Assembly (NCBI GenBank): GCA_039028735.1
Contig: JBCCHQ010000011.1
Location: forward strand, 7,127-71,126
Length of the DNA stretch: 64,000 nt
From: Planctomycetota bacterium
GTDB lineage: Bacteria; Planctomycetota; UBA8108; UBA1146; JAJFFE01
Direction of reading: 5' to 3'
The notes under the pieces are model-generated. The model was not told the DNA's origin. It did not search any database and saw only the letters and a program-made list of their open reading frames with translations. Shown piece by piece: positions 35,199 to 47,099 of this stretch. Made by a program: the position numbers and the translations under genes. Numbering within the stretch: position 1 is the first letter of the stretch; every line of letters starts with the position of its first letter.

Positions 35199-37553
35199 CT
35201 AGAGGTCATCGAAGTCGAAGTCGCTCAACTCTTCTAACGACTGCTCCTCCTCGTTCGTCAGGGGCTGACTCAACATCTCGCTCGCAACGTCAGCACCTGC
35301 GCCCCAGTACTCGCCCAAGTTCTCTGCGATGTGCCGCTTCTCTTGCGGGCTGAACCCGCCGAACGAGCGACGAAGAAAGACGAGTGCGCGCAGGAACTCC
35401 CCCTCTTCGAGGGACTCAACGTAACCGGCCAGCTGTTCCCACAAAGGTTGCCGCGCGAGCAGCGCATACCGATTACGCTTCGACAGGCCTTCGAACCACC
35501 CCGCGCCAAGGTCCGCGTCGATACCTGGCGATAGACGGCGGGACATCTCGCGGGCGAGATCCTCGTTGTCTACGAGGTTGCGTTCCAAGAGAATCGCGCA
35601 CGCGTACCCCGACAGTAGTGGGTTGTGCTGATCGGAGTCTGCCAGCCGCCTCAACTCGCCAACCCACAGGTTCTCGTCAACGCGATCGCTGTACTCGAGG
35701 TTCACCTTGTTGAGCTCATCGATCGCAACGACAGCTGACTTGGCAGCTGCATCATCGCAATTGGCCGCCCCTATCAACGCCAGCGATCCCTGAACGAACA
35801 AGTCTTCCACTAGAGGCATCAACGGTTCAGGGTCGAACTGTCGTACATCTCCGTAACGAGCAATCATGCCGAGGCGGTTGGCAGCATGTGCAATAGCCCT
35901 GAACTCGGATGTTCCCGATGCCAGTTCCTGCAAGCGCTGACGCGCCTGGTCCATCGCGGCGATCATTCCGCACTTGCAAGCGTCACTCACCATGCTTGCT
36001 GCTTCAGCAACGGATTCGCACTTCGACAGCTTCGACTTGAAGGAGTAGCCGGTCGCTACTTCGATGGTTTCACCGAGGAGCACCGCTTCGACGAGCTGAA
36101 TCTCCGACTCGGTCGACCATTGGACATGCCACTTCTCTGCCCAAGTCGTCGAGTCTTGGTGAGTTTCCTGTTCGACTGCGAACTCGACGCCGATGACTCG
36201 GAGGCGATGGAGGAGCGACGACCGATTCAGGTCGAGGTATGCAGCCTCCTCGCTCTTGGCGCGTCTATTCTCTCGGAGATCGAGGCCAAGCTCCTGCTTC
36301 ACCGTCGTGCGGTACTTCGTTAGCTTGTAGCGAGCGAGCTGCCGTTCGAAGTCGTCTTGGATGGACGTCTGACTGACTCCCGCCGGGAGCTGACCGATGG
36401 CCGTCCCGACTTCGACGTATGCCATCGACTGGGATACCGAGGAGACTTCGCCGTGGCCAATGAGTGTCGTCGCGGCGTCGCGGAGGTCCGCAAGCGTCGG
36501 TGCTTGGCCGCCTTTGAGCGCAGCGAGACTTTGCGCGAGACGAACCCCCTCGATGACCTCGGCTGTCGATCGGTGCGTTCCCTGCTCGCGAGTGTGCCTT
36601 GCGACCATGGACAGATAGCGCGAGGGCAGGTGTTCGATTCGGGCTTCCTGTAAGGACTCCCACAGCAGCTCGAAGTAGGCGGGTGCGTGGTTGCCGGCGC
36701 CGTAGCCAGACTGCGACGACAACTTGAAGTAGGAGTACGGCATCAGCGTCAGTTTGCTGGGACGACGCTTGAGTGTTGAGAGCTCGTCGTCGGTCATCGC
36801 CGGCAAGTGGCCACCGATCGCTGACGCGTGATACGCTCCAACCAGGACGACGATGTCCTCCGGAGCCATGCCGGCGTCGATCGTCTCTTGGATTCGCCGC
36901 CGCATGTATGCTTCACGAACTAGATTCTCTGCATCGGACTGGGGCGAACGCTCGTCGAATTCGCGCAGCCCAGCGCCGAACTCGATCGCCGCGAGGCGGT
37001 AAGAATCGTCGGTCAGATTGTGCTCGAAGTTTCGCTCCCAATAGGTTTCATAGTCGGGCTCGCCGGCGTGCCTTGCGAATCGTTCATAGAGAGACTCACG
37101 CTCATGACGAGCCTCGACGTCGAGCTCTTCTTGCGGTGCTTCTCCCTTCCGCTGCTCTGGCGAGTCTTTGGAAAGTTCCTTGTCTGGTAGAGGAGTCTCG
37201 TCCGTTCGCTGCTGGGATTGCAGGGCGAGGAAGACGTCGGAGGGCAGATCGATCCATTCGGCTCTCGCACGATTCTGCTTCGCCCAAACGAGAGCTTGAT
37301 ACTCCGGGCTGTACCTCGCGATGGGGTAGACAACGGTGCCCACCGGAAGATCCTCCGTGTAGGCAAGGATGGCGATCGGAGGCACCGTGCCTCGTCGAGT
37401 CATGTCTGGGATCAATGCCCCAGCGTCTGACAGCCCCTCGATCAAGACCGCCTTGGGCTTCTTCTGGTCGAGAAATCGACGGAGGTGCCACGCCCCGGAC
37501 GGGGACAGGTGACGGATTCCGAACACATGAACCTGATCCAGAGAATCAGTCAT
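35199..37553 (-). CDS. DUF5682 (YehM-like) protein
   Basis: FGIRHLSP, VLIEG, YSPEYQA, WIDLP, REAYMR, GAYH, YGAG. Confidence 0.88.
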   Translation of the reverse strand: MTDSLDQVHVFGIRHLSPSGAWHLRRFLDQKKPKAVLIEGLSDAGALIPDMTRRGTVPPIAILAYTEDLPVGTVVYPIARYSPEYQALVWAKQNRARAEWIDLPSDVFLALQSQQRTDETPLPDKELSKDSPEQRKGEAPQEELDVEARHERESLYERFARHAGEPDYETYWERNFEHNLTDDSYRLAAIEFGAGLREFDERSPQSDAENLVREAYMRRRIQETIDAGMAPEDIVVLVGAYHASAIGGHLPAMTDDELSTLKRRPSKLTLMPYSYFKLSSQSGYGAGNHAPAYFELLWESLQEARIEHLPSRYLSMVARHTREQGTHRSTAEVIEGVRLAQSLAALKGGQAPTLADLRDAATTLIGHGEVSSVSQSMAYVEVGTAIGQLPAGVSQTSIQDDFERQLARYKLTKYRTTVKQELGLDLRENRRAKSEEAAYLDLNRSSLLHRLRVIGVEFAVEQETHQDSTTWAEKWHVQWSTESEIQLVEAVLLGETIEVATGYSFKSKLSKCESVAEAASMVSDACKCGMIAAMDQARQRLQELASGTSEFRAIAHAANRLGMIARYGDVRQFDPEPLMPLVEDLFVQGSLALIGAANCDDAAAKSAVVAIDELNKVNLEYSDRVDENLWVGELRRLADSDQHNPLLSGYACAILLERNLVDNEDLAREMSRRLSPGIDADLGAGWFEGLSKRNRYALLARQPLWEQLAGYVESLEEGEFLRALVFLRRSFGGFSPQEKRHIAENLGEYWGAGADVASEMLSQPLTNEEEQSLEELSDFDFDDL

Positions 37554-38655
37554 GCTGCTCCATACACGCCTGGTAAAGCGGTCTCCAAGCGGCACCCCGC
37601 TTCTTCATCACGTTCTTCAGATACTCCTGCCAGACGATGTGGTCCTTCTCCTCATCTTTGACAATCGCACCTTGGAGACCTGATGCCATGTCAGCTGCAT
37701 CGACTTCGCCATTCCCGAAGTTGCCGGCCAGTGCCATGCTGTTCGCGAGCAGTGAGATCGCCTCGGCCGTCGACAAAACCCCCGATGGCGACTTCACCTT
37801 GCTCTTTCCATCCAGGGTTTGGCCGGCGCGAAGCTCCCGAAAGATCGTGACGACTTTCTCAATAGCGTCCTCGGCCGGTACCTCCGCGTTGAGGTCGAGG
37901 CTCGACGCGAGCTCGCGCACTCGCTTGCTGACAATGTCAATCTCGGTTTCCAGCTGACTTGGCGTAGGTAAAACGATGATGTTGAAGCGCCGCTTGAGTG
38001 CCGCAGACATGTCATTTACGCCGCGGTCACGGGTGTTTGCCGTAGCGATGATCGAGAAACCCTTCGAAGCTGCGACTTCTGTCTCGAGTTCCGGGACCGA
38101 GATGCGCTTCTCGGACAGCAACGAGATCATGGCGTCCTGAACTTCGGATGCGCAGCGAGTGATTTCTTCGAAACGGGCAATCGCGCCGTTCTCCATGGCG
38201 CGGAAGATCTCACTCTTGATGAGAGCCTCATGACTCGGGCCGTGGGCAATCAACATGGCGTAGTTCCAGGTATACCGGATCTGTTCTTCAGTGGTTCCGG
38301 CCGTGCCTTGCACGACACGAGTCGAGTTGCCGTTTATCGCTGCCGTGAGGTGTTCAGAAAGCCATGACTTTGCAGTTCCGGGCTCGCCGATCAGCAACAA
38401 GGCTCGGTCGGTGACGAGTGTAGAAATGGCAATCTCCACCAGGCGCTGATGGCCGATGTACTTAGGAGTGATGTTCCTTTTTCCGCACTTCCCACCACAG
38501 ACGTACAAGAGCACGGAACGCGGGGACATCTGCCAACCGGTCGGAACATCATGCTTCTCTGCTTTGATCAGGGCGTCGATTTCCTCTGCAAACAACGCTT
38601 CGGCAGGCTGTCGTAGCACGCTGCCTTCGTTGCCCGCTGACTTCTTCTTTGACAT
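37546..38655 (-). CDS. MoxR-type AAA+ ATPase (YehL-like)
   Basis: GEPGTAKSWLSE, QGTAGTTEEQIRYTWNYAML, RFEEITR, ATANTRDRGVNDMSAALKRRF. Confidence 0.93.
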   Translation of the reverse strand: MSKKKSAGNEGSVLRQPAEALFAEEIDALIKAEKHDVPTGWQMSPRSVLLYVCGGKCGKRNITPKYIGHQRLVEIAISTLVTDRALLLIGEPGTAKSWLSEHLTAAINGNSTRVVQGTAGTTEEQIRYTWNYAMLIAHGPSHEALIKSEIFRAMENGAIARFEEITRCASEVQDAMISLLSEKRISVPELETEVAASKGFSIIATANTRDRGVNDMSAALKRRFNIIVLPTPSQLETEIDIVSKRVRELASSLDLNAEVPAEDAIEKVVTIFRELRAGQTLDGKSKVKSPSGVLSTAEAISLLANSMALAGNFGNGEVDAADMASGLQGAIVKDEEKDHIVWQEYLKNVMKKRGAAWRPLYQACMEQHD

Positions 38656-38664
38656 CGTTTCCTG

Positions 38665-40440
38665 CTACCTCTTCTTCAGCTGTTCCAGGACCGGGATCAG
38701 CAAATCGATGGTCTGCTCAGAGAGTTTGGGCACGACTGCCTCGATCTTTGATACGGCATCCTTGGGCAGATAGGGAATCAACTCCATGAGCCAGTGGGTG
38801 TAGTAGCCTGGACGGGAGCCGTCCTGCACCACCAACAAGTTCACAAAATGCTCGACACACTTCGGGTGTTCGATACGGATCATGACGCGTAGCAAATCCG
38901 AGACGTCGTAGTCTGTCGCGCCTTTCCCCTTGAGCTTCGCGTCGACTGTCTTCGAGAGTAGCTTGATAGCGCCTCTGTGCTTGGGCTGTGCTAGGGCCAT
39001 TACGACCGGCAAGTCGTTCAGCTTGACCGCAGCCTCTAGCCAACGCGAGTCGAGCTTGGCTTTGCTCGTCTGCGACGAATGTCCCGTCTCTCCAGACAAG
39101 AACCCTGCGACGACTTCTTGCTTGTCCTTCGCAGGATTGGCGCCGCGCTTCTTGGGGATAGTGGCGACGTAGTACGGCGAGAACAACGTGAAGAATCTCT
39201 TTATCGTGCAGGTCTGGAGTCCGGCGACGAGCGCCCACTCGAGGGCATCTGGCGGCAGGGACTCATGGGCCTCGATGAGTTGTTCTTGAGCCGACTTCGA
39301 CTTGGACTCTGCCAACAGGCCGGCAACTCGCTCGACGACACAGCTACCATCGGTGCCCCCCCGGTTCTTGACTCTCGCCAGATTCTCACGCTGCTCGAAG
39401 CATCCGAGCAGAAAGGAGATCGACTTCTTGTCACTGCGCGACTGAAATCCCAGAAGCAGATCGAAGAGTCTTGTGAGAGCCTCGAGGCGCTTCGCCTTGT
39501 CCTTCGTGGCAAGCACCGCTTCCAATTGCTCGTTCGTCAGTTCGAGCAACCTGTCGAGCAGTTCGGGACTGCGATTTCGACTCACTGCGTAAAGGGCGAA
39601 GACGGCGTCCGTACCACCGAGCGCGCCGAGGAGAGCCTCGACCACTTCAGGCTGCGAGAAGCCAGCAATGGCGTCGAGCGCAGCACGCCGAACCTCCTGG
39701 GATCTTGCCTTGACTTGACTCAGAAGAAAGGAGAGGTGCTCCTCCGAATCCTTGAGGCAAGAGATAGCTGCGACCTTCAGTTCCTTCGAGCCGGATTCGA
39801 GCGCCTCTTCGACTTTCTTTCGTGACCCGACCGAGTCGAGCTTGTGCATCAACACCAAGCGGCGAGCGTGCCCTCCCTTCCCTTTGACGTCCAGCGTCTG
39901 CGCCAGCTCGGGGAGGATCGCAGTGCCGTATGCCGGAAGTATCTGCGTTGCGACGTATTCGCCGATCTCGCTGTAACCATCATCGATCGCGGCTACTGCG
40001 AGTTTCACTAATCGTATGTCGTTGAAGACTCCGCGCTCATGCGCTTCTGAAATGATCTCCAAACGTCCGGAGCCTGTCGATTTCAAGGCTTCGATCAAGG
40101 GTTTCAGCACTCGTGCGCTCGTGTTCGAAGACGTAAGACCAAAGTCAGAGCCCTCTATCGAGCGCGCTTCCTTGGCCGCACCGGTCCTCCCCTGGGTGTA
40201 TCGGATCGCTGTCACGAGGGTTCCTAGCTCGAGAAGCCTCTGCGGAGAGGACTCTGCGTCGCTACTGACAACATCCTTCACCGCTTGTGCAACCCGAGCG
40301 AAAACGGGAGCCTTCTCTCCGGCCTTCTGCAGCGGGTCGATGAGCTTCTTCAGCCGAAAGTCGTCGCTGGCCAGATTGCTGCCTGCGATCGCGAGGCGCC
40401 GAGTTTCGGCATAGACTTCGTTCAGAACTGCGATGCTCAT
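38665..40440 (-). CDS. HEAT-repeat protein of the MoxR/VWA operon
   Basis: All-alpha; HEAT-like ELKVAAISCL and EVRRAALDAI; operonic spacing. Confidence 0.8.
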   Translation of the reverse strand: MSIAVLNEVYAETRRLAIAGSNLASDDFRLKKLIDPLQKAGEKAPVFARVAQAVKDVVSSDAESSPQRLLELGTLVTAIRYTQGRTGAAKEARSIEGSDFGLTSSNTSARVLKPLIEALKSTGSGRLEIISEAHERGVFNDIRLVKLAVAAIDDGYSEIGEYVATQILPAYGTAILPELAQTLDVKGKGGHARRLVLMHKLDSVGSRKKVEEALESGSKELKVAAISCLKDSEEHLSFLLSQVKARSQEVRRAALDAIAGFSQPEVVEALLGALGGTDAVFALYAVSRNRSPELLDRLLELTNEQLEAVLATKDKAKRLEALTRLFDLLLGFQSRSDKKSISFLLGCFEQRENLARVKNRGGTDGSCVVERVAGLLAESKSKSAQEQLIEAHESLPPDALEWALVAGLQTCTIKRFFTLFSPYYVATIPKKRGANPAKDKQEVVAGFLSGETGHSSQTSKAKLDSRWLEAAVKLNDLPVVMALAQPKHRGAIKLLSKTVDAKLKGKGATDYDVSDLLRVMIRIEHPKCVEHFVNLLVVQDGSRPGYYTHWLMELIPYLPKDAVSKIEAVVPKLSEQTIDLLIPVLEQLKKR

Positions 40441-40451
40441 CAGATACCCCC

Positions 40452-41909
40452 TCAGTACGTCAACCGGACGATCGCCGTCTCGGTGACAATCCCGAGAGGT
40501 TTGACGCGTAGCCTCTGAGAATCGAGATCGTGATCGAAACGCCCGACGAGTGTTTGATCCTTGAATAGATCGTCAGACAGCAACCGCAACAGATGGCAAC
40601 TTGAAGGTTCTTCGCTCAGTCCACGATCGGTGAGAGCGATCCGAGTTCCGCTTGCGTCTTCGATGACGAACTCTCCGTCCTCGGTTTCCATCATGTTTGC
40701 GTATGACAACGCATGGACGGGGTGCTTGTCAGCCAACGGCGCCTTGAGTTGACCCTTGACGGACTTGATCAGTGCTTCGAAGTCGCTGCCAGCGAGCTCT
40801 CGGATGGCTCGGCAGTCTGCATCTTTCAACGGGCGCGGGGCCATCTCTTCCCAGCGCACGCGAGGATTGACGTCTCCCGGGTACACGCACAGCTCTTTGA
40901 CGACTGCGACTTGGAAGAAGCTGTCACCGCTCTTGATGTAGTCGAGTGCTTTGTACGGGCGAAAGGTCTGAGTGATCGAGACGCGGCCCGAGCGAAGGTC
41001 GATCCAGGTGCCCGTATCAACGTACTCTCTTCTGGCAACGTCGTCGTGCGAGTTGAAAGCGAGTTGCACCAACTCGACGTCGTTCTCGACGAGTCCCGCG
41101 TCCCGAAGCTCCGACAACTGCCACGCATGCCCCAACCACGCTGCGATGGCGGTCTCGGTTTCTGGTTTGAGATCTGGGTCCGCGAGGCGGCGACTCAGGT
41201 AGGCTCGGCCGTTCTTGATCAATGCGTGGATCCGTGTCAGCTGATCGAGTGCTTCGCTGTAGATTGCTTCGAGGTTCACTGACTCGCCGTTGCCGCCGAT
41301 TCGACCGTCGTCGCCGGCGAAGAGCTTCGTGTAGTCCCGTAGTGCTGCTTGTGCTCCTGGAAGAAAGGCGTTGCCTAGCTGTTTCGCCTGGTCGTCGATC
41401 TGTGTGGCGGTCTTCGCGTTCGTATTGCCCATGCCCATGCGAACGAGGTCGTGAGTCAGTGTCTCGAGGAGGTCGAGCCCTTTGAGCTGAGCCTGGATCT
41501 TCTTGTTCAGCGCGGTCTTGTTGACCTTTTTGGGCTTGCCCGAGTCGGCCTTCTGCTTCTCCTTTCGAGCCGCGAGCTTCTCTCGCTTCTCTTCGATGTC
41601 GCTCGGCACCTCCGCGACTTGGAACGACTTTCCCTGAGTCCAGGCGTACATGAGGCCCAAGCAGTGCTTGCACGGAAACTGTCGGCTTGGACAACTGCAG
41701 CGGTGGGTCGGAGCCTCTGGACGAACGAAGTCGCAGGAGCAGTGATAGTTGGATTTGCCGCTACCCTTGCACTCTCCAAAGATGATTGTCTCATCTTCAG
41801 ACTTGTTGAGTGCGAGATACTTACCCTTCAACACCAGCCCGCGCCCGTTCTTGATGGCACTCGCGTTCGGCGCAGCGGAGTCGACGTACGACTCGTCGAT
41901 CTGAATCAT
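40452..41909 (-). CDS. SWIM zinc-finger protein (YehQ-like)
   Basis: GECKGSGKSNY, CSCPSRQFPCKHCLGL. Confidence 0.9.
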   Translation of the reverse strand: MIQIDESYVDSAAPNASAIKNGRGLVLKGKYLALNKSEDETIIFGECKGSGKSNYHCSCDFVRPEAPTHRCSCPSRQFPCKHCLGLMYAWTQGKSFQVAEVPSDIEEKREKLAARKEKQKADSGKPKKVNKTALNKKIQAQLKGLDLLETLTHDLVRMGMGNTNAKTATQIDDQAKQLGNAFLPGAQAALRDYTKLFAGDDGRIGGNGESVNLEAIYSEALDQLTRIHALIKNGRAYLSRRLADPDLKPETETAIAAWLGHAWQLSELRDAGLVENDVELVQLAFNSHDDVARREYVDTGTWIDLRSGRVSITQTFRPYKALDYIKSGDSFFQVAVVKELCVYPGDVNPRVRWEEMAPRPLKDADCRAIRELAGSDFEALIKSVKGQLKAPLADKHPVHALSYANMMETEDGEFVIEDASGTRIALTDRGLSEEPSSCHLLRLLSDDLFKDQTLVGRFDHDLDSQRLRVKPLGIVTETAIVRLTY

Positions 41910-42185
41910 GGGGAACCCCAGGAGCTATGAGTTCGTGAGCTAAGCAGTCGTCACGGTACAAAGGCTCGCATCAAGGAGAAAGCGATTTCGCCGGTTCTTC
42001 GCGCGAGAGCAGGGATTGAAGCTCTCGCAGATGGCTTGGGCGAAGGCAGAGTCGTTCAAACGGCACTGCGGAAACCTCGCCCTCACGCCTCGCCCAAGTG
42101 GGATTCACCCAGGCAGAGATTGCGATGGCACAGTTTCGATGAGACTCTGGTTCGGAAGGTAACAAGAACCTAAGGAGATCGAGTC

Positions 42186-42521
42186 ATGAAGAAATGGGTG
42201 ATGTTCGGCTTGCTGGGCGTGTGCTGCGTCGTCGGTGTCATGGCGGTCATGAGCTTCATGGGAGTTCGGGCGAACGAAGGTGCGCTCGAAGAGATTCGAG
42301 GCCAAGAAGGAGTCGTAGTTCTCTCTGTGGCAGGCATGACATGAGGCGTTGGATGCAAACTGAGCGTGCGGGACACGCTCCTTGCCCTAGCAGACGTCAA
42401 AGATGCAGCCGTCGACTACGACCAAGGCCTTGCTTACGTGCTTCCAGCCGGCAACTTCGACACTGAGCAAGCCATCGCTGCGCTCGGTGAAGGAGGAAGG
42501 TACTCGGCGAAGACTCAGTAG
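42186..42521 (+). CDS. Probable selenoprotein: membrane-anchored HMA/MerP/CopZ-like metal-binding protein, 111 aa, Sec at codon 53
   Basis: TAAGGAG RBS; N-terminal TM; VLSVAGMT-[TGA 42342-42344]-GVGC, then 54 more HMA-like residues to TAG; SECIS-like hairpin; not in the ORF track. Confidence 0.85.
42355..42385 (+). promoter_or_regulatory. Bacterial SECIS-like stem-loop
   Basis: GCAA..GAGCGTG-CGGGA-CACGCTC.TTGC; 24 nt between the UGA and the loop; G at loop position 2. Confidence 0.75.
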
Positions 42522-42639
42522 GTTGAGCTCAAACTTCGACTCCATTGCTGGGCGAACACGACGTTGCGCTCGTTCTGTTCTTGGCTTCGTTCTGTTCCTG
42601 GCGTCGGTCTGTTAGCCTCGGGCCTGCTGGTCGCTATCG

Positions 42640-45033
42640 TCAACCTTGCACGGCGCGCTCCAGCGCTTGCAGCGTCGCCGAGCGTCCAGGCAAGGCGGCT
42701 CGGAGCGCGTTGACTTGCCCCGCGAGCTCCTGGGTGTTTCCGACTTCGTCGAGGATGCGCCGCGCTTGCCGAGCCCAAGCGAAGGCACTTGCGCGACCAC
42801 GGGGCGACGCCGCCTCGAGCCTTGCCAGATTGAGATAGCTGAGAGCGATGTGTCGGTGTTTCTCCGGCAGTACCGAACGTCGCAGCTCCAGAGAGCTGCG
42901 CAAGTGTGAATCGGCTTGCCGCTGGCGCCCCATTTCGAGGTAGAGCTCGCCCAGGTTGTTCAGCGCGCTGGCCAGTTCAATGCGCGACCCCGGCGACTTG
43001 CGCCACTCCTTCACCGCTGCAACGAGCCTTTCCTCGGCCTCGTCTTGGTGACCTAGAATCAGCAGCAAGCGACCGAGGTTGTTGAGACAGTGCGCCGCCT
43101 GGGCGTGGTCTCCGGCGGCCACTTCCATACGAATATCGAGCGCTTCCCGATAGTGTTCGAGGGCCTCTTCGTACCGCTTCTGCTCCTCACAGAGTGCACC
43201 GAGATTGTTGCGATAGCGGGCGCTGCCTTGGCGAGGACTGAGGGCGATGCACTCTTTCAGAAAACGTTCTGCAGCGCGGTACTCGCCAAGTCCGAGCGCA
43301 GCGAGGGCGCGATTGTTGGTCGCATCGCGAAGCACGCTGGGGGGCACCTCCGAGAGATTGGCGATGGCGCGTGCGGCGACGGCGAAGCGCCGTTTGGCCT
43401 TTTCGTGCTGACCCATCTGACCATACACCATACCGAGGTTGCTCTGCGTCTTCGCGACGTCGATGTCTGTTGGGCCGAACGCTTCGGACAGTCGTCGCAC
43501 CGCAAGCTTCAGGTACGTTTCGGCGTCGCCCAATTGCCCCGTCTGCAGAAACAAGCAGCCGAGCGCTCGCACCAGTTGAGCCATGTCGCCGCCGCGGTCA
43601 GAAACGCTGCGCGCGTATTCAATGCAGCGCCGAACGTGTGGTTCCAACGCTTGTTGCTCGGCCAGTGGTGCTGTCGGGAACCGACGCTTCATGACCTCGC
43701 AGAGGTCGCTGCGCAGCCGAGCTCGCTGCGAGCGCGTCAACGAGCGCTCAATCGATTCGTGTGCGATGCAGTGCAACGTGTACTGCTGCGTTTCGGTATC
43801 GATCGCGACGAGCGAACGACGCACCAACCCGGACAACGCTGCCTGGGCGTCTGCGGTCGAAACGCTTTCGGTGTGGGCCAGGTCGATCGCGAGGTCCGTC
43901 GGGATTGGCGCGACTGCCGCCACCGACAAGAGTCGGATCAGCCGTGCGGCAGTAGGCGCGACGGCTTCCACGGCAGCCAAACCCCGGCGCCACGGCGCGC
44001 GAACGGTGCGCGGGAACCGAAACCGGCGCCAGTGGTCGTCGACGAACGTCGTGTAGCTGCACCGACGCGCCGACACGAACGCAGCGATTGCCTCCAAAGC
44101 AGGCAAGTAGTTACCAAGAGCGAGCGTCAACGACGTGGCGGCTTGTAGCTCCCCCTCCTCGCGCGGCGACATCGCCGTGGCGGCCGCTGATCGGCGACGC
44201 TTTCGCGACGAAGAGCTACGATGCACACCCCATTCCTGGCAACGGTCTGCGGAGCGGTGGCACAAGAGATCACCACGACCACCTCGCAGCAGTAGGAAGT
44301 CGACAGCATCGCTGTCAGGCAGGTTCGGCACATCGACGCGAACAAACCCGGACGGGACCGAGTCCTCGTTCGCTGTCGTCAAGAGAACATGCCCCGACGC
44401 GACGTCGCGCGGCAACTGGCTCCACCACGGCGGCTGTGTTTCGACACCGTCGATCACGAGGAGCCAGTCGGTGCTGTGTGTGAGCGCGGCGAACACGGCG
44501 CGTGCATAGACCTCGGGGTCGTTGTTGCGGCGCACACCGAGAAGAGTGCCGATACGATTGAGGCAGCTGGCACCCCCATCCGACGACGCGGCGTCGATCC
44601 AATACACATCGCCAAACCCTGCTTGCTGGCGGACAGCAAACTGACAAGCGATCTCGCTCTTGCCCACTCCTGGCATGCCGACAAGTGCAACGCGTCGCGT
44701 GGGAGCCTCCGACCTACGCGACGCCGCTCGGAATGCGTTGGACAGTTGCAACAGGATGTCGGTGCGCCCGACGAACAGAGGCGAGGGGACACGAGGTACC
44801 GACCAGTGATCCGTGGCAAGCGTCTGCGGGAAAGCGATGTCTTGGAGGCCGACATCCAAAGCGTTCGCCAAGCTCGTAAGACACGCAGCAGTCACGCGCT
44901 CGCCGGCTTCCGCACGCCGAAGCGTTGCAATGTCGACGCCCGCCGCTTGTGCAAGTTCGAGTTGTCGCCAGCCGCGAAACGATCTCAACCAAAGAATCGC
45001 TCGTGAGTCGGGCAGCACGCTACGATGCGACAT
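42640..45033 (-). CDS. XRE-HTH + NB-ARC (STAND NTPase) + TPR protein
   Basis: LRSFRGWRQLELAQAAGVDIATLRRAEAG HTH; FVGR, GMPGVGKS Walker A, LLVIDG Walker B; TPRs with NNLG motifs. Confidence 0.85.
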   Translation of the reverse strand: MSHRSVLPDSRAILWLRSFRGWRQLELAQAAGVDIATLRRAEAGERVTAACLTSLANALDVGLQDIAFPQTLATDHWSVPRVPSPLFVGRTDILLQLSNAFRAASRRSEAPTRRVALVGMPGVGKSEIACQFAVRQQAGFGDVYWIDAASSDGGASCLNRIGTLLGVRRNNDPEVYARAVFAALTHSTDWLLVIDGVETQPPWWSQLPRDVASGHVLLTTANEDSVPSGFVRVDVPNLPDSDAVDFLLLRGGRGDLLCHRSADRCQEWGVHRSSSSRKRRRSAAATAMSPREEGELQAATSLTLALGNYLPALEAIAAFVSARRCSYTTFVDDHWRRFRFPRTVRAPWRRGLAAVEAVAPTAARLIRLLSVAAVAPIPTDLAIDLAHTESVSTADAQAALSGLVRRSLVAIDTETQQYTLHCIAHESIERSLTRSQRARLRSDLCEVMKRRFPTAPLAEQQALEPHVRRCIEYARSVSDRGGDMAQLVRALGCLFLQTGQLGDAETYLKLAVRRLSEAFGPTDIDVAKTQSNLGMVYGQMGQHEKAKRRFAVAARAIANLSEVPPSVLRDATNNRALAALGLGEYRAAERFLKECIALSPRQGSARYRNNLGALCEEQKRYEEALEHYREALDIRMEVAAGDHAQAAHCLNNLGRLLLILGHQDEAEERLVAAVKEWRKSPGSRIELASALNNLGELYLEMGRQRQADSHLRSSLELRRSVLPEKHRHIALSYLNLARLEAASPRGRASAFAWARQARRILDEVGNTQELAGQVNALRAALPGRSATLQALERAVQG

Positions 45034-45140
45034 AAGCGCCTCATTGACTATAGCTTAGCGAACACACTGAACTGATGGGTCCAGCCTCCTCCATGCAACA
45101 CATGATACCCGCTCAACTACGATCCGTGGAGGAGGTGACC

Positions 45141-47099
45141 ATGTCACGCAACGTATCTATCTGGTGTCTGTTCATTCTGACGATGGCGACGCCGCTCGCT
45201 GCCCAGCCACTGACCTGCGGCACGCAACTCGCAGGTTCGATCTCCGGGGCAGGCGAAGAGGATGTACTTGTGCTGCAAGCAACCGCGGGGGACACGATCT
45301 CGCTGGTGCTTTGGCAAACGGGCGGCAGCAACTTCACAGTGCATGGCGACCTCTACCCTCCGAGTTCTACCAGTACACCCATCCTGCAGGATCTCAATGG
45401 CGAGAACCAGATCGACCTGACCGAGTCCGGCACCTACATACTGCGGGTGCACGACGACAACCTCGCGCACACCGGCAACTACGCAGTCGAGTATAACACC
45501 ATCGCACCGGCCTCGAACCAATGCGGTGTGCAAGCGGTGAGTTGCGGGCAAAACGTCACCTCGACGATCGCCGTCACAAGCGAACAACACTTCTATGCGA
45601 TCGATGCACAGGCGGGCGACACGATCTCGCTGGTGCTGTGGCAAACAGGCGGCAGCAACTTCACGGTACATGGAGATCTGTACGCTCCGGGGGGCGCCAC
45701 CGTGCCGCTGGCCACTGATCTCAACGGCGAGAATCAAATCGATGTGACGCAAACGGGCACCTACACGCTGATCGTGCACGCGAGCACCTTCTACTACACC
45801 GGGAACTACTCACTTGAGTTCAGCACCATTGCACCGTTGACGAATCAATGTGACGTACAGGCGATTGCATGTGGCGAGAACGTGGCGTCCACGATCGCGG
45901 CCACGGCAGAGCAGCACTTCTATACGTTCGATGCTCAGGCTGGGGATACGATGTCACTGGTGCTGTGGCAGACGGGTGGCAGCAACTTCACGGTTCATGG
46001 AGATCTCTATGGTCCCGGTGCGACCACGACGCCGCTGGCAGGCGATCTCAACGGTGAGAACCAGTTCGATATCACGCAAACGGGAACCTACACGCTGGGC
46101 GTACATGCCAGCACGTTCTACTACACCGGCAACTACTCACTGGAGTTCAACACCATTGCACCGCTGGCGAATCAATGTGGCGTGCAAGCGATTACGTGTG
46201 GCGAGAACGTGGCGTCCACGATCGCGGCTACGGCAGAACAGCACTTCTATTCTTTGGATGCTCAGGCCGGAGACACGATCTCGCTGGTGTTGTGGCAGAC
46301 CGGCGGCAGCAACTTCACGACCCACGGCGACCTCTATGGGCCGGGCGCAACCACTGCACTGCTGGCTGATCTCAACGGAGAGAATCAGATCGACGTGACA
46401 CAATCAGGGACCTACACACTCGCCGTTCATGCCAGCACCTACTACTACACCGGCAACTACTCTCTAGAGTTCAACACCGTCGCGCCAGTCGCGAATCAGT
46501 GCGCCGGGCAAGTGATCGCGTGTGGCAGCAACGTATCGGGTAGCATCGCCGAAACCGGCGAGCAGCACATTTACTCGATCGACGCGCTGGCCGGCGACAC
46601 GATCTCTCTGCAGGTCCAGGCGACCGGGGGTAGCAACTTCGTGGCTCACGGGGACCTGTTCGAGCCGGGGTCTACTGTCCCCCTCGTGGAAGACTTGTCT
46701 AGTGTGGAGGAAATCACTCTACCTATCGCTGGCATCTACACGCTGCGGGTGCATGCGAGTACCTACTACTACACTGGCAACTACGTGATCGATCTGACGT
46801 GGACCGGGCCGTTCTCGCAACAGTGCTACGATTTCATTCGCGGCGACGCGAGCGCCGACGGATCCGTGAACCTGCTCGATGCGATTCTGACGTTGAACTA
46901 CCTGTTCCTCGGCGATGCGCATCCGTGCCCGGAGTCGCTGGATTCAAACGATGACTCGGCAGTGAACCTCGTGGACCCGGTTCATACACTGAACTACTTG
47001 TTCGCGATGGGGCCTGCCCCAGGATCGCCGTTCCCCGGTTGCGGACTCGACGGCGACCCCGCTTCGAGTCTGGGTTGCGATCCGGCCGCCTGTCCCTAA
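45141..47099 (+). CDS. Secreted protein with five ~109-aa beta-sandwich (PPC-like) repeats and a C-terminal dockerin-like domain
   Basis: GGAGGAGG RBS; signal peptide; repeated AGDTISLVLWQTGGSNF...GTYTL; FIRGDASADGSVNLLD...DSNDDSAVNLVD. Confidence 0.9.
   Translation: MSRNVSIWCLFILTMATPLAAQPLTCGTQLAGSISGAGEEDVLVLQATAGDTISLVLWQTGGSNFTVHGDLYPPSSTSTPILQDLNGENQIDLTESGTYILRVHDDNLAHTGNYAVEYNTIAPASNQCGVQAVSCGQNVTSTIAVTSEQHFYAIDAQAGDTISLVLWQTGGSNFTVHGDLYAPGGATVPLATDLNGENQIDVTQTGTYTLIVHASTFYYTGNYSLEFSTIAPLTNQCDVQAIACGENVASTIAATAEQHFYTFDAQAGDTMSLVLWQTGGSNFTVHGDLYGPGATTTPLAGDLNGENQFDITQTGTYTLGVHASTFYYTGNYSLEFNTIAPLANQCGVQAITCGENVASTIAATAEQHFYSLDAQAGDTISLVLWQTGGSNFTTHGDLYGPGATTALLADLNGENQIDVTQSGTYTLAVHASTYYYTGNYSLEFNTVAPVANQCAGQVIACGSNVSGSIAETGEQHIYSIDALAGDTISLQVQATGGSNFVAHGDLFEPGSTVPLVEDLSSVEEITLPIAGIYTLRVHASTYYYTGNYVIDLTWTGPFSQQCYDFIRGDASADGSVNLLDAILTLNYLFLGDAHPCPESLDSNDDSAVNLVDPVHTLNYLFAMGPAPGSPFPGCGLDGDPASSLGCDPAACP
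45216..46830 (+). repeat. Five intragenic tandem repeats of 324-327 bp
   Basis: Units start at Cys codons 45216, 45543, 45870, 46197, 46521; units 2-4 are closely similar in DNA. Confidence 0.9.

Follow-up and report, generated by a model that had tools for sequence, protein, structure and literature searches.

A predicted exported selenoprotein with an HMA-type domain and a U-x3-C motif in a planctomycete genome and its relatives

INTRODUCTION

A 2022 table of 87 prokaryotic selenoprotein families places selenocysteine (Sec) in a cation-transporting ATPase (UxxC), a UxxU protein, and MerT (PMC9312934), and the same Sec entries stand in the accessible part of the 2026 update (PMC13188914). 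In the accessible text of these reviews, the UxxU family is listed as a "putative mercuric reductase / metal-binding protein" (PMC9312934, PMC13188914). Table 2 of the 2008 GOS paper includes a "Mercuric transport protein MerP" selenoprotein family with two sequences, for which that table gives no motif (PMC2398784), and selenoprotein candidates from planctomycete genomes are given in a supplementary table, according to the available portion of that paper (PMC4807772).

The DNA analyzed here (the window) is a stretch of 64,000 nucleotides from a marine member of the Planctomycetota, and it contains a small gene in which an in-frame TGA coincides with the first metal-ligand position of a heavy-metal-associated (HMA) domain. 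A preliminary description of this DNA stated that Sec had been predicted before in HMA/MerP-like domains, and this is true of several sister families (UxxC ATPases, the UxxU protein, and a MerT/CopZ fusion). All NCBIfam cut-offs lie far above the scores of the window protein, its ortholog, two paralogs, and a Cys form. The UxxU metal-binding (seleno)protein (NF041115) resembles the window protein in being a small stand-alone HMA-type protein with Sec at the first ligand position. Among NCBIfam models it ranks second for the window protein, the ortholog, and one paralog, and first for the remaining paralog. However, the window family scores 30 to 37 bits against a cut-off of 95 (30.0 bits for the window protein), and NF041115 has two Sec residues in its UxxU motif, whereas the window family has one in U-x3-C, together with an extra loop residue and export signals.

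Sec also replaces the first Cys in the homologous HMA domains of cation-transporting P1B-type ATPases (UxxC), as described in the accessible text of the reviews (PMC9312934, PMC13188914). Those domains form the cytoplasmic N-terminal part of a large pump and have xx spacing, whereas the window protein is free-standing, predicted to be exported, and about 100 residues long, with x3 spacing. The MerT/CopZ fusion-like heavy metal transport selenoprotein (NF045683) is curated and has an HMA-type domain linked to a membrane part, but the window protein matches it at 19.7 bits (cut-off, 375), is without a MerT domain, and has one hydrophobic segment. MerP (TIGR02052; structures 1afi and 1osd) is a small exported HMA protein, as the window family is predicted to be, with an end-to-end profile match (E 1.9e-17), although the window protein scores 21.4 bits against a cut-off of 92.55, MerP has Cys residues with xx spacing, and there is no mer operon beside the family members examined. 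Chaperones of the CopZ/Atx1 type share the single HMA domain with the window protein, whose genome also codes for copper ATPases; the best NCBIfam match of the window protein is NF047957 (CopZ_AFE_1862), but at 34.9 bits versus a cut-off of 85, and CopZ has CxxC. CopZ is cytoplasmic and lacks a signal sequence.

RESULTS

A candidate selenoprotein gene and its surroundings

The coding sequence (42186..42521, plus strand; translated with TGA as U) has 111 codons, with Sec as codon 53 and a TAG stop at 42519-42521. A Shine-Dalgarno-like TAAGGAG can be seen directly in the sequence at 42171..42177 (plus strand), 8 nt 5' of ATG 42186, where the preliminary description had placed a ribosome binding site. 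The only internal stop in the frame from this ATG is the TGA of codon 53 (42342-42344), and the earlier translation, with its one internal TGA at GMT-U-GVG-C, was reproduced letter for letter. A separate downstream gene beginning at GTG 42366 was considered and rejected, as it would be without the first beta-strand and the metal loop.

The gene is flanked on the minus strand by genes for a SWIM zinc-finger protein (40452-41909) and an HTH/NB-ARC/TPR protein (42640-45033), and neither mer nor cop genes were found among the flanking genes examined, which bears out the earlier statement that no such operon is adjacent. The SWIM gene is one of three consecutive minus-strand genes (37546-41909), the others coding for a MoxR-like AAA_5 ATPase and a HEAT-repeat protein, and these may constitute one operon. 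The gene at 42640-45033 codes for a 797-residue STAND-type regulator with an N-terminal HTH, an NB-ARC ATPase, and TPR repeats, and its G+C content (0.61-0.685) is above that of its flanks (0.56-0.60). A scan of positions 41800-42800 revealed no promoters or terminators, and a search of the whole window with Rfam at gathering thresholds gave zero matches. Because Rfam finds no tRNA in the window at the gathering score, an 89-nt tRNA-Ala (anticodon cgc) called by ARAGORN at 46799-46887 (minus strand), inside a 674-residue open reading frame (45075-47099, plus strand), is probably a false call.

Orthologs and selection on both sides of the TGA

In a tree of 52 family members, the window protein and a single ortholog (L058) share a long branch with support of 100/100. 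The ortholog comes from another family of the phylum and has the same organization, with 111 residues, a hydrophobic start beginning MKKW, and a TGA at codon 53. The two loci have zero neighbor genes in common. The proteins are identical at 32 of 52 amino acid positions upstream of the TGA and at 38 of 58 downstream, and dN/dS is 0.086 upstream and 0.11 downstream, with synonymous sites near saturation (pS 0.69-0.74); purifying selection thus acts equally on both parts of the frame. L058 is the only other member of the window subfamily examined as DNA, and no Cys-form member of the subfamily was seen.

An exhaustive search of 1.84 billion representative proteins gave 76 matches at E <= 0.001, including one 111-residue protein that is 51% identical and has W at the Sec position, five 52-residue proteins ending in GMT or GMD, and four C-terminal pieces. 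These stubs, pieces, and the W copy are the expected output of gene callers from TGA-bearing orthologs. The ortholog stored with Trp at the Sec position (P0004; NCBI source, 948-base contig) is read as a caller translating TGA as W. A word-index protein search with the window protein alone returned one fragment, and a related-locus search of genome contigs recovered only the locus already known.

The simplest alternative is that the gene is a nonsense pseudogene or carries an assembly error, such that a 52-residue peptide or nothing functional is made. Standard gene callers do end the gene at the TGA, and 52-residue fragments are present in databases, but a TGA occupies the same column in dozens of divergent sequences, and the dN/dS of about 0.11 downstream of the TGA contradicts the relaxed selection that the preliminary description had named as the mark of a simple pseudogene. 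The TGA is also present in a separate assembly by Logan of the probable source run, which agrees exactly across 601 bases (depth, about 9x) and is independent of the assembler, though not of the sample. These comparative data and the Logan assembly contradict a nonsense pseudogene and an assembly error, and the residual probability we would give to either is minimal. A search of sequencing runs found the stretch only in the probable source metagenome and listed no RNA runs containing it.

Recurrence of the TGA in paralogs and across the phylum

Two further copies in the same genome as the window (G000 C29:20015-20251, plus strand, and C37:8217-8495, minus strand; L038 and L039) came to light when 61 related genomes were searched in six frames with the read-through protein. 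Both have a single in-frame TGA that coincides in position with that of the window gene, within GM[AT]-U-x3-C-PP (GMAUAENCPP and GMTUGKGCPP), and each has a preceding lipoprotein-type signal and a SECIS-like hairpin of its own. The three genes of this genome are 24 to 30% identical, and all have the TGA at GM[TA]-U-x3-C. In other genomes the motif is GMT-U-x3-C-[PA]-P, or a Cys form, GM[AS]-C-x3-C-PP, at the same column.

A family profile (A1; 14 members) was then searched against 401 genomes of the phylum, and 32 of the best 50 matches have one in-frame TGA; among 30 family loci fetched from this survey, the motif contains TGA in 19 and Cys alone in 11. Metagenome contigs were scanned with the pattern G-M-T-x-G-V-G-C, leaving the third base of the fourth codon free to avoid selecting for TGA. 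This gave 66 loci, of which 33 were judged by eye to be family members (a beta-strand before the motif and HMA-like sequence for 55 to 65 codons to the stop), the other 33 being chance matches. The family members comprise 32 with TGA and one with TGT; many of those with TGA are nearly identical to each other, and the distinct sequences among them number at least 19. Cys-form homologs in databases have GM-x-C-x3-C at the same column in 77 of 95 instances. As the sequences are related to each other, the contrasts between Sec and Cys counts overstate their independence.

Some genomes carry family genes next to each other. Two U forms adjoin in one locus (L051, G385:C3), and in another a U form lies beside a Cys form with GMTCPVKC (L057, G144:C39); further adjacent pairs were seen among the survey matches in G259, G244, G180, and G410. 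Two variants depart from the common motif, one with GMG-U-SS-C and thus xx spacing (L068, G312:C435) and one with PMQ-U-GGA-C and no GM motif (L067, G140:C31).

With TGA or Cys at residue 53 of the homologs, conservation both upstream and downstream, and the TGA-specific SECIS-like hairpin described below, the selenoprotein reading put forward in the preliminary description has held up well, and the window gene is very probably a real selenoprotein, as judged from comparative sequence analysis.

A SECIS-like hairpin conserved in the Sec forms

A SECIS-like stem-loop lies at 42355..42385 (plus strand), as recognized by folding, the SECIS model, and comparison with the ortholog L058. The upper stem pairs GAGCGUG (42362-42368) with CACGCUC (42374-42380) around the loop CGGGA (42369-42373), the lower stem pairs GCAA (42355-42358) with UUGC (42382-42385), and the UGA-to-loop distance is 24 nt; all parts of the hairpin reported earlier (stems, loop, spacing, and the GCAA/UUGC extension) are thus present. 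Taken alone, however, the hairpin folds no better than chance, with z = -0.51 for 75 nt (58 of 200 shuffles fold as well) and z = -0.58 for 49 nt (52 of 200), and the minimum-energy fold of the 49-nt stretch of L058 is a structure other than the hairpin. Because the single-sequence hairpin is no more stable than shuffles, comparative tests were relied upon, and the significance of this candidate SECIS comes from comparison across homologs. The hairpin itself is kept in L058, whose stem differs from that of the window by a single U-A to U-G change.

The 60 nt 3' of the Sec/Cys codon were compared in 41 distinct Sec forms and 17 Cys forms, which are related to each other, such that the contrasts are not between independent samples. 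A hairpin with at least 6 uninterrupted bp whose apical loop begins at +17 to +30 follows the codon in 31 of 41 Sec forms and in 2 of 17 Cys forms; for shuffles the figure is 21%. The bacterial SECIS model, as laid out in the accessible part of the 2026 update, has a loop of 3 to 9 nt, an upper stem of 4 to 16 bp, a G in the first two loop positions, a distance of 16 to 37 nt from the UGA, and a minimum free energy of <= -7.5 kcal/mol (Fig. 2 legend; PMC13188914). When the four constraints of the model in this form are applied strictly, to the bare hairpin only, 26 of 41 Sec forms conform, as do 1 of 17 Cys forms and 244 of 2050 shuffles. The window element is among those that satisfy the model as given there (7 bp, loop CGGGA, spacing of 24 nt, and -10.8 kcal/mol for the bare hairpin).

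The stems are wholly different between subfamilies (AAGUGCG, CCCCUGC, GAGCGUG, CCUCCGCA, GUGCUCCGC, and others), while the position of the hairpin and its G-rich loops (GGU, GGUCU, GUU, and CGGGA) are kept. Within the largest subgroup (A5; 21 sequences), compensatory changes on both sides occur in 4 of 9 pairs, the covariation score is reached by 0 of 500 shuffles, and the pairing is lost when the partners are slid.

Selenocysteine machinery of the genome

Outside the window, at C102:9785-13252 of the same genome (G000), selA (539 bits), selD (356 bits), and tRNA-Sec (72 bits) form a cluster (loci L001, L011, and L012), all scoring over cut-off. The selD gene itself contains a single in-frame TGA, located near the N-terminus within CAGUASK, so that it would be a further selenoprotein gene. 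We take this U to be the catalytic residue of SelD (Cys or Sec), in which case selenophosphate synthesis would require the organism to read UGA as Sec. TGA is otherwise an ordinary stop codon and ends 779 of the 2235 open frames with 400 or more codons; a global reassignment of TGA was rejected on this basis.

The preliminary description had proposed that selA, selB, selC, and selD be sought in the genome, and selA, selD, and tRNA-Sec are in place, whereas selB was not found in this incomplete assembly. With TIGR00475 there is no match over cut-off in the genome, and its eight partial matches are read, from their lengths and ends only, as other translational GTPases (EF-Tu, IF-2, EF-G, and similar). 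The SelB winged-helix model (SelB-wing_3) likewise has no match in the genome, and tblastn with the SelB proteins of two relatives from the same family finds nothing in it past the GTPase-like region. Because the assembly searched is 93% complete (252 contigs) and selB scores over cut-off in 5 of 5 relatives tested, an assembly gap is the likelier reason for the missing gene. Elsewhere, 5 of 5 other genomes with a U form have selA, as do 4 of 5 genomes with a Cys form, the exception being a complete genome carrying a Cys form.

The missing selB would fit a different reading, in which the organism lacks SelB and the UGA is suppressed without selenocysteine, for example, by a near-cognate tRNA inserting Cys or Trp. 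This is very improbable, however: selD with its active-site UGA would be truncated too, selA and tRNA-Sec stand intact beside selD, selB is found in all of the relatives tested and the assembly is incomplete, and the conservation of the SECIS-like hairpin would have no reason. With selenocysteine insertion as the preferred reading, SelB carrying Sec-tRNA(Sec) would bind the hairpin at 42355-42385 during translation and insert selenocysteine at codon 53.

A predicted HMA domain with a longer metal loop

Residues 43-111 (42312..42518, plus strand) constitute an HMA-like (ferredoxin-like metal-binding) domain by the Pfam HMA model and a family profile (A3). With C substituted for U, residues 45-85 score 25.6 bits against Pfam HMA (PF00403), narrowly passing the cut-off of 24.8, and the Cys forms in databases carry PF00403 as well. 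Compared with solved HMA domains, the A3 profile (41 members) gives full-length matches that include MerP (1afi, E 1.9e-17), the N-terminal domain of MerA (2kt2), CopZ, and the six domains of ATP7B, and these full-domain profile matches suggest the beta-alpha-beta-beta-alpha-beta fold.

The predicted first ligand is the selenocysteine U53 encoded by TGA 42342..42344 (plus strand) in GMT-U-GVG-C, at the TGA/Cys column of the homologs, and the second is Cys57 (42354..42356, plus strand), which is invariant in both alignments (14 rows in A1 and 41 in A3). The canonical GMxCxxC loop is replaced by U/C-x3-C, and every alignment with a solved HMA domain has a one-residue gap in the canonical partner (for example, GMTCgvgC versus GMTCQ-SC), confirming the unusual spacing noted earlier. 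The gap implies that, by this profile-based prediction, the family has an HMA domain whose loop is extended by one residue and whose first ligand is Sec or Cys. HMA repeats with C-x3-C and without Sec are also found in proteins of 1066 to 1405 aa in which the last repeat is a canonical CxxC, and the spacing alone is therefore not unique to the U-x3-C family. Six long proteins of 550 to 1405 aa (P0005, P0007, P0012, P0024, P0037, and P0052) contain three to five C-x3-C HMA repeats (e.g., GMSCAKNC), and all but one of these end with a canonical CxxC repeat.

Predicted export

The N-terminus of the window subfamily consists of MKK, a hydrophobic stretch of about 22 residues, and [VI]-[RQ]-A-N, which is conserved. 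In the window protein the hydrophobic segment spans codons 4-25 (42195..42260, plus strand; Kyte-Doolittle), with a 19-residue mean of 2.43 compared with 2.27 to 2.77 in six orthologous N-termini, and it is followed by V-R-A-N (42264..42275, plus strand), a possible signal peptidase I site at which the protein may be cleaved. These features would be compatible with a signal anchor or with a signal peptide whose cleavage follows V-R-A. A lipobox ([LVI][ASTVI][GAS]C) is absent from the window protein and L058, whereas a lipobox-like motif is present in 36 of 49 others by a loose pattern and, among Cys-form proteins from databases, in 86 of 95. By the positive-inside rule, the N-terminal segment would place the domain outside the cytoplasm, and the window protein is likely exported.

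The preliminary description also drew attention to a Cys-Cys pair in the hydrophobic segment. The pair is present (C13 and C14), but it occurs in none of the six orthologous N-termini and is probably meaningless; a functional role for it was rejected on this lack of conservation.

Metal and function

Clustering of 318 flanking open reading frames from 51 loci revealed no conserved neighbors pointing to a metal or a partner. Recurrent neighbors are confined to closely related loci and consist of unrelated housekeeping genes (those for PntB, a glycosyltransferase, MOSC, HAD, IF-3, an aldolase, and DUF1501). In the genome of the window, two copper P-type (P1B) ATPases score over cut-off, no MerT was found, and there is no MerA over cut-off (best, 315 bits versus 454).

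Metal binding is a fairly probable predicted function of the window protein on these sequence comparisons. The main rival is a redox role of the selenol-thiol pair, in which the protein is an exported selenoprotein but U-x3-C is a redox center (a selenylsulfide, as in thiol-disulfide oxidoreductases and peroxidases) and the HMA fold has been co-opted outside the cytoplasm. The loop one residue longer than the metal-binding GMxCxxC would suit such a role, as would the lack of conserved metal-resistance genes beside family members. Nonetheless, all solved relatives recovered with the family profile are metal-binding HMA domains, the GM motif and the ligand positions are retained, C-x3-C variants occur as N-terminal repeats in the 1066- to 1405-aa proteins that end with a canonical CxxC domain, and the sister Sec-HMA families are curated as metal binding, which together make a redox center improbable.

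An exported selenoprotein that is an HMA-type metal binder using U53 and C57 is, taken as a whole, the best explanation and a probable one. The hydrophobic N-terminus would direct the protein across the cytoplasmic membrane, where it would be anchored or else cleaved after V-R-A, and the C-terminal HMA-fold domain on the periplasmic side would hold a soft metal ion between the U53 selenolate and the C57 thiolate, in a loop predicted to be one residue longer than canonical GMxCxxC. We infer both the metal and the physiological role of the family. The likeliest metal is Cu(I), given that two copper P-type ATPases are encoded in the genome and that neither MerT nor a MerA above its cut-off was found there, with Hg(II), Ag(I), and Cd(II) also possible, and the putative role is likely that of a periplasmic metal buffer, scavenger, or chaperone without a dedicated operon.

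DISCUSSION

The U-x3-C family appears from its sequences to be widespread, mostly Sec containing, and, by prediction, exported. A stand-alone HMA family with U-x3-C is absent from the 2022 table (PMC9312934) and from the accessible part of the 2026 update (PMC13188914), and no mention of PF00403, UxxxC, or a lipoprotein was found in that part of the update (PMC13188914). The main text of the deep-Sep and BSepDB papers likewise does not contain HMA, heavy, MerP, mercur, or copper. In public sources the Cys forms are named "heavy-metal-associated domain-containing protein," "mercuric ion binding protein" (some, from JGI), or "copper chaperone CopZ," and none of these names refers to a selenoprotein. 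The "Mercuric transport protein MerP" family of the GOS paper could equal the U-x3-C family, as far as the entry in its Table 2 indicates (PMC2398784). As judged from the published lists examined, the U-x3-C family is an apparently uncatalogued variant within the known group of HMA-type selenoproteins. The preliminary description had allowed that the family might not be wholly new; this is correct insofar as HMA-type sister families are known, but the U-x3-C family itself is not in the selenoprotein lists examined.

A broader and tentative proposal, which we consider possible but doubtful, is that these proteins constitute a phylum-wide, mostly Sec-containing, and uncatalogued family of exported HMA lipoproteins and anchored proteins of marine Planctomycetota, in which the enlarged U-x3-C loop would create a selenolate-thiolate site specialized for a single soft metal, either Hg(II) or Cu(I), and would provide a selenium-dependent layer of scavenging or hand-off outside the cytoplasm that is independent of mer and cop operons.

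Gene calls cut at the TGA leave a widespread selenoprotein family unannotated in Planctomycetota and marine metagenomes, and the family offers dozens of natural SECIS variants within one coding context. If the predicted function is true, an exported selenium-based metal site would join the few metal-handling selenoproteins known, and natural Sec/Cys pairs, in related genomes and side by side in L057, could be used to gauge what selenium contributes to an HMA site. The supply of selenium in the ocean would then also be linked to the handling of copper or mercury.
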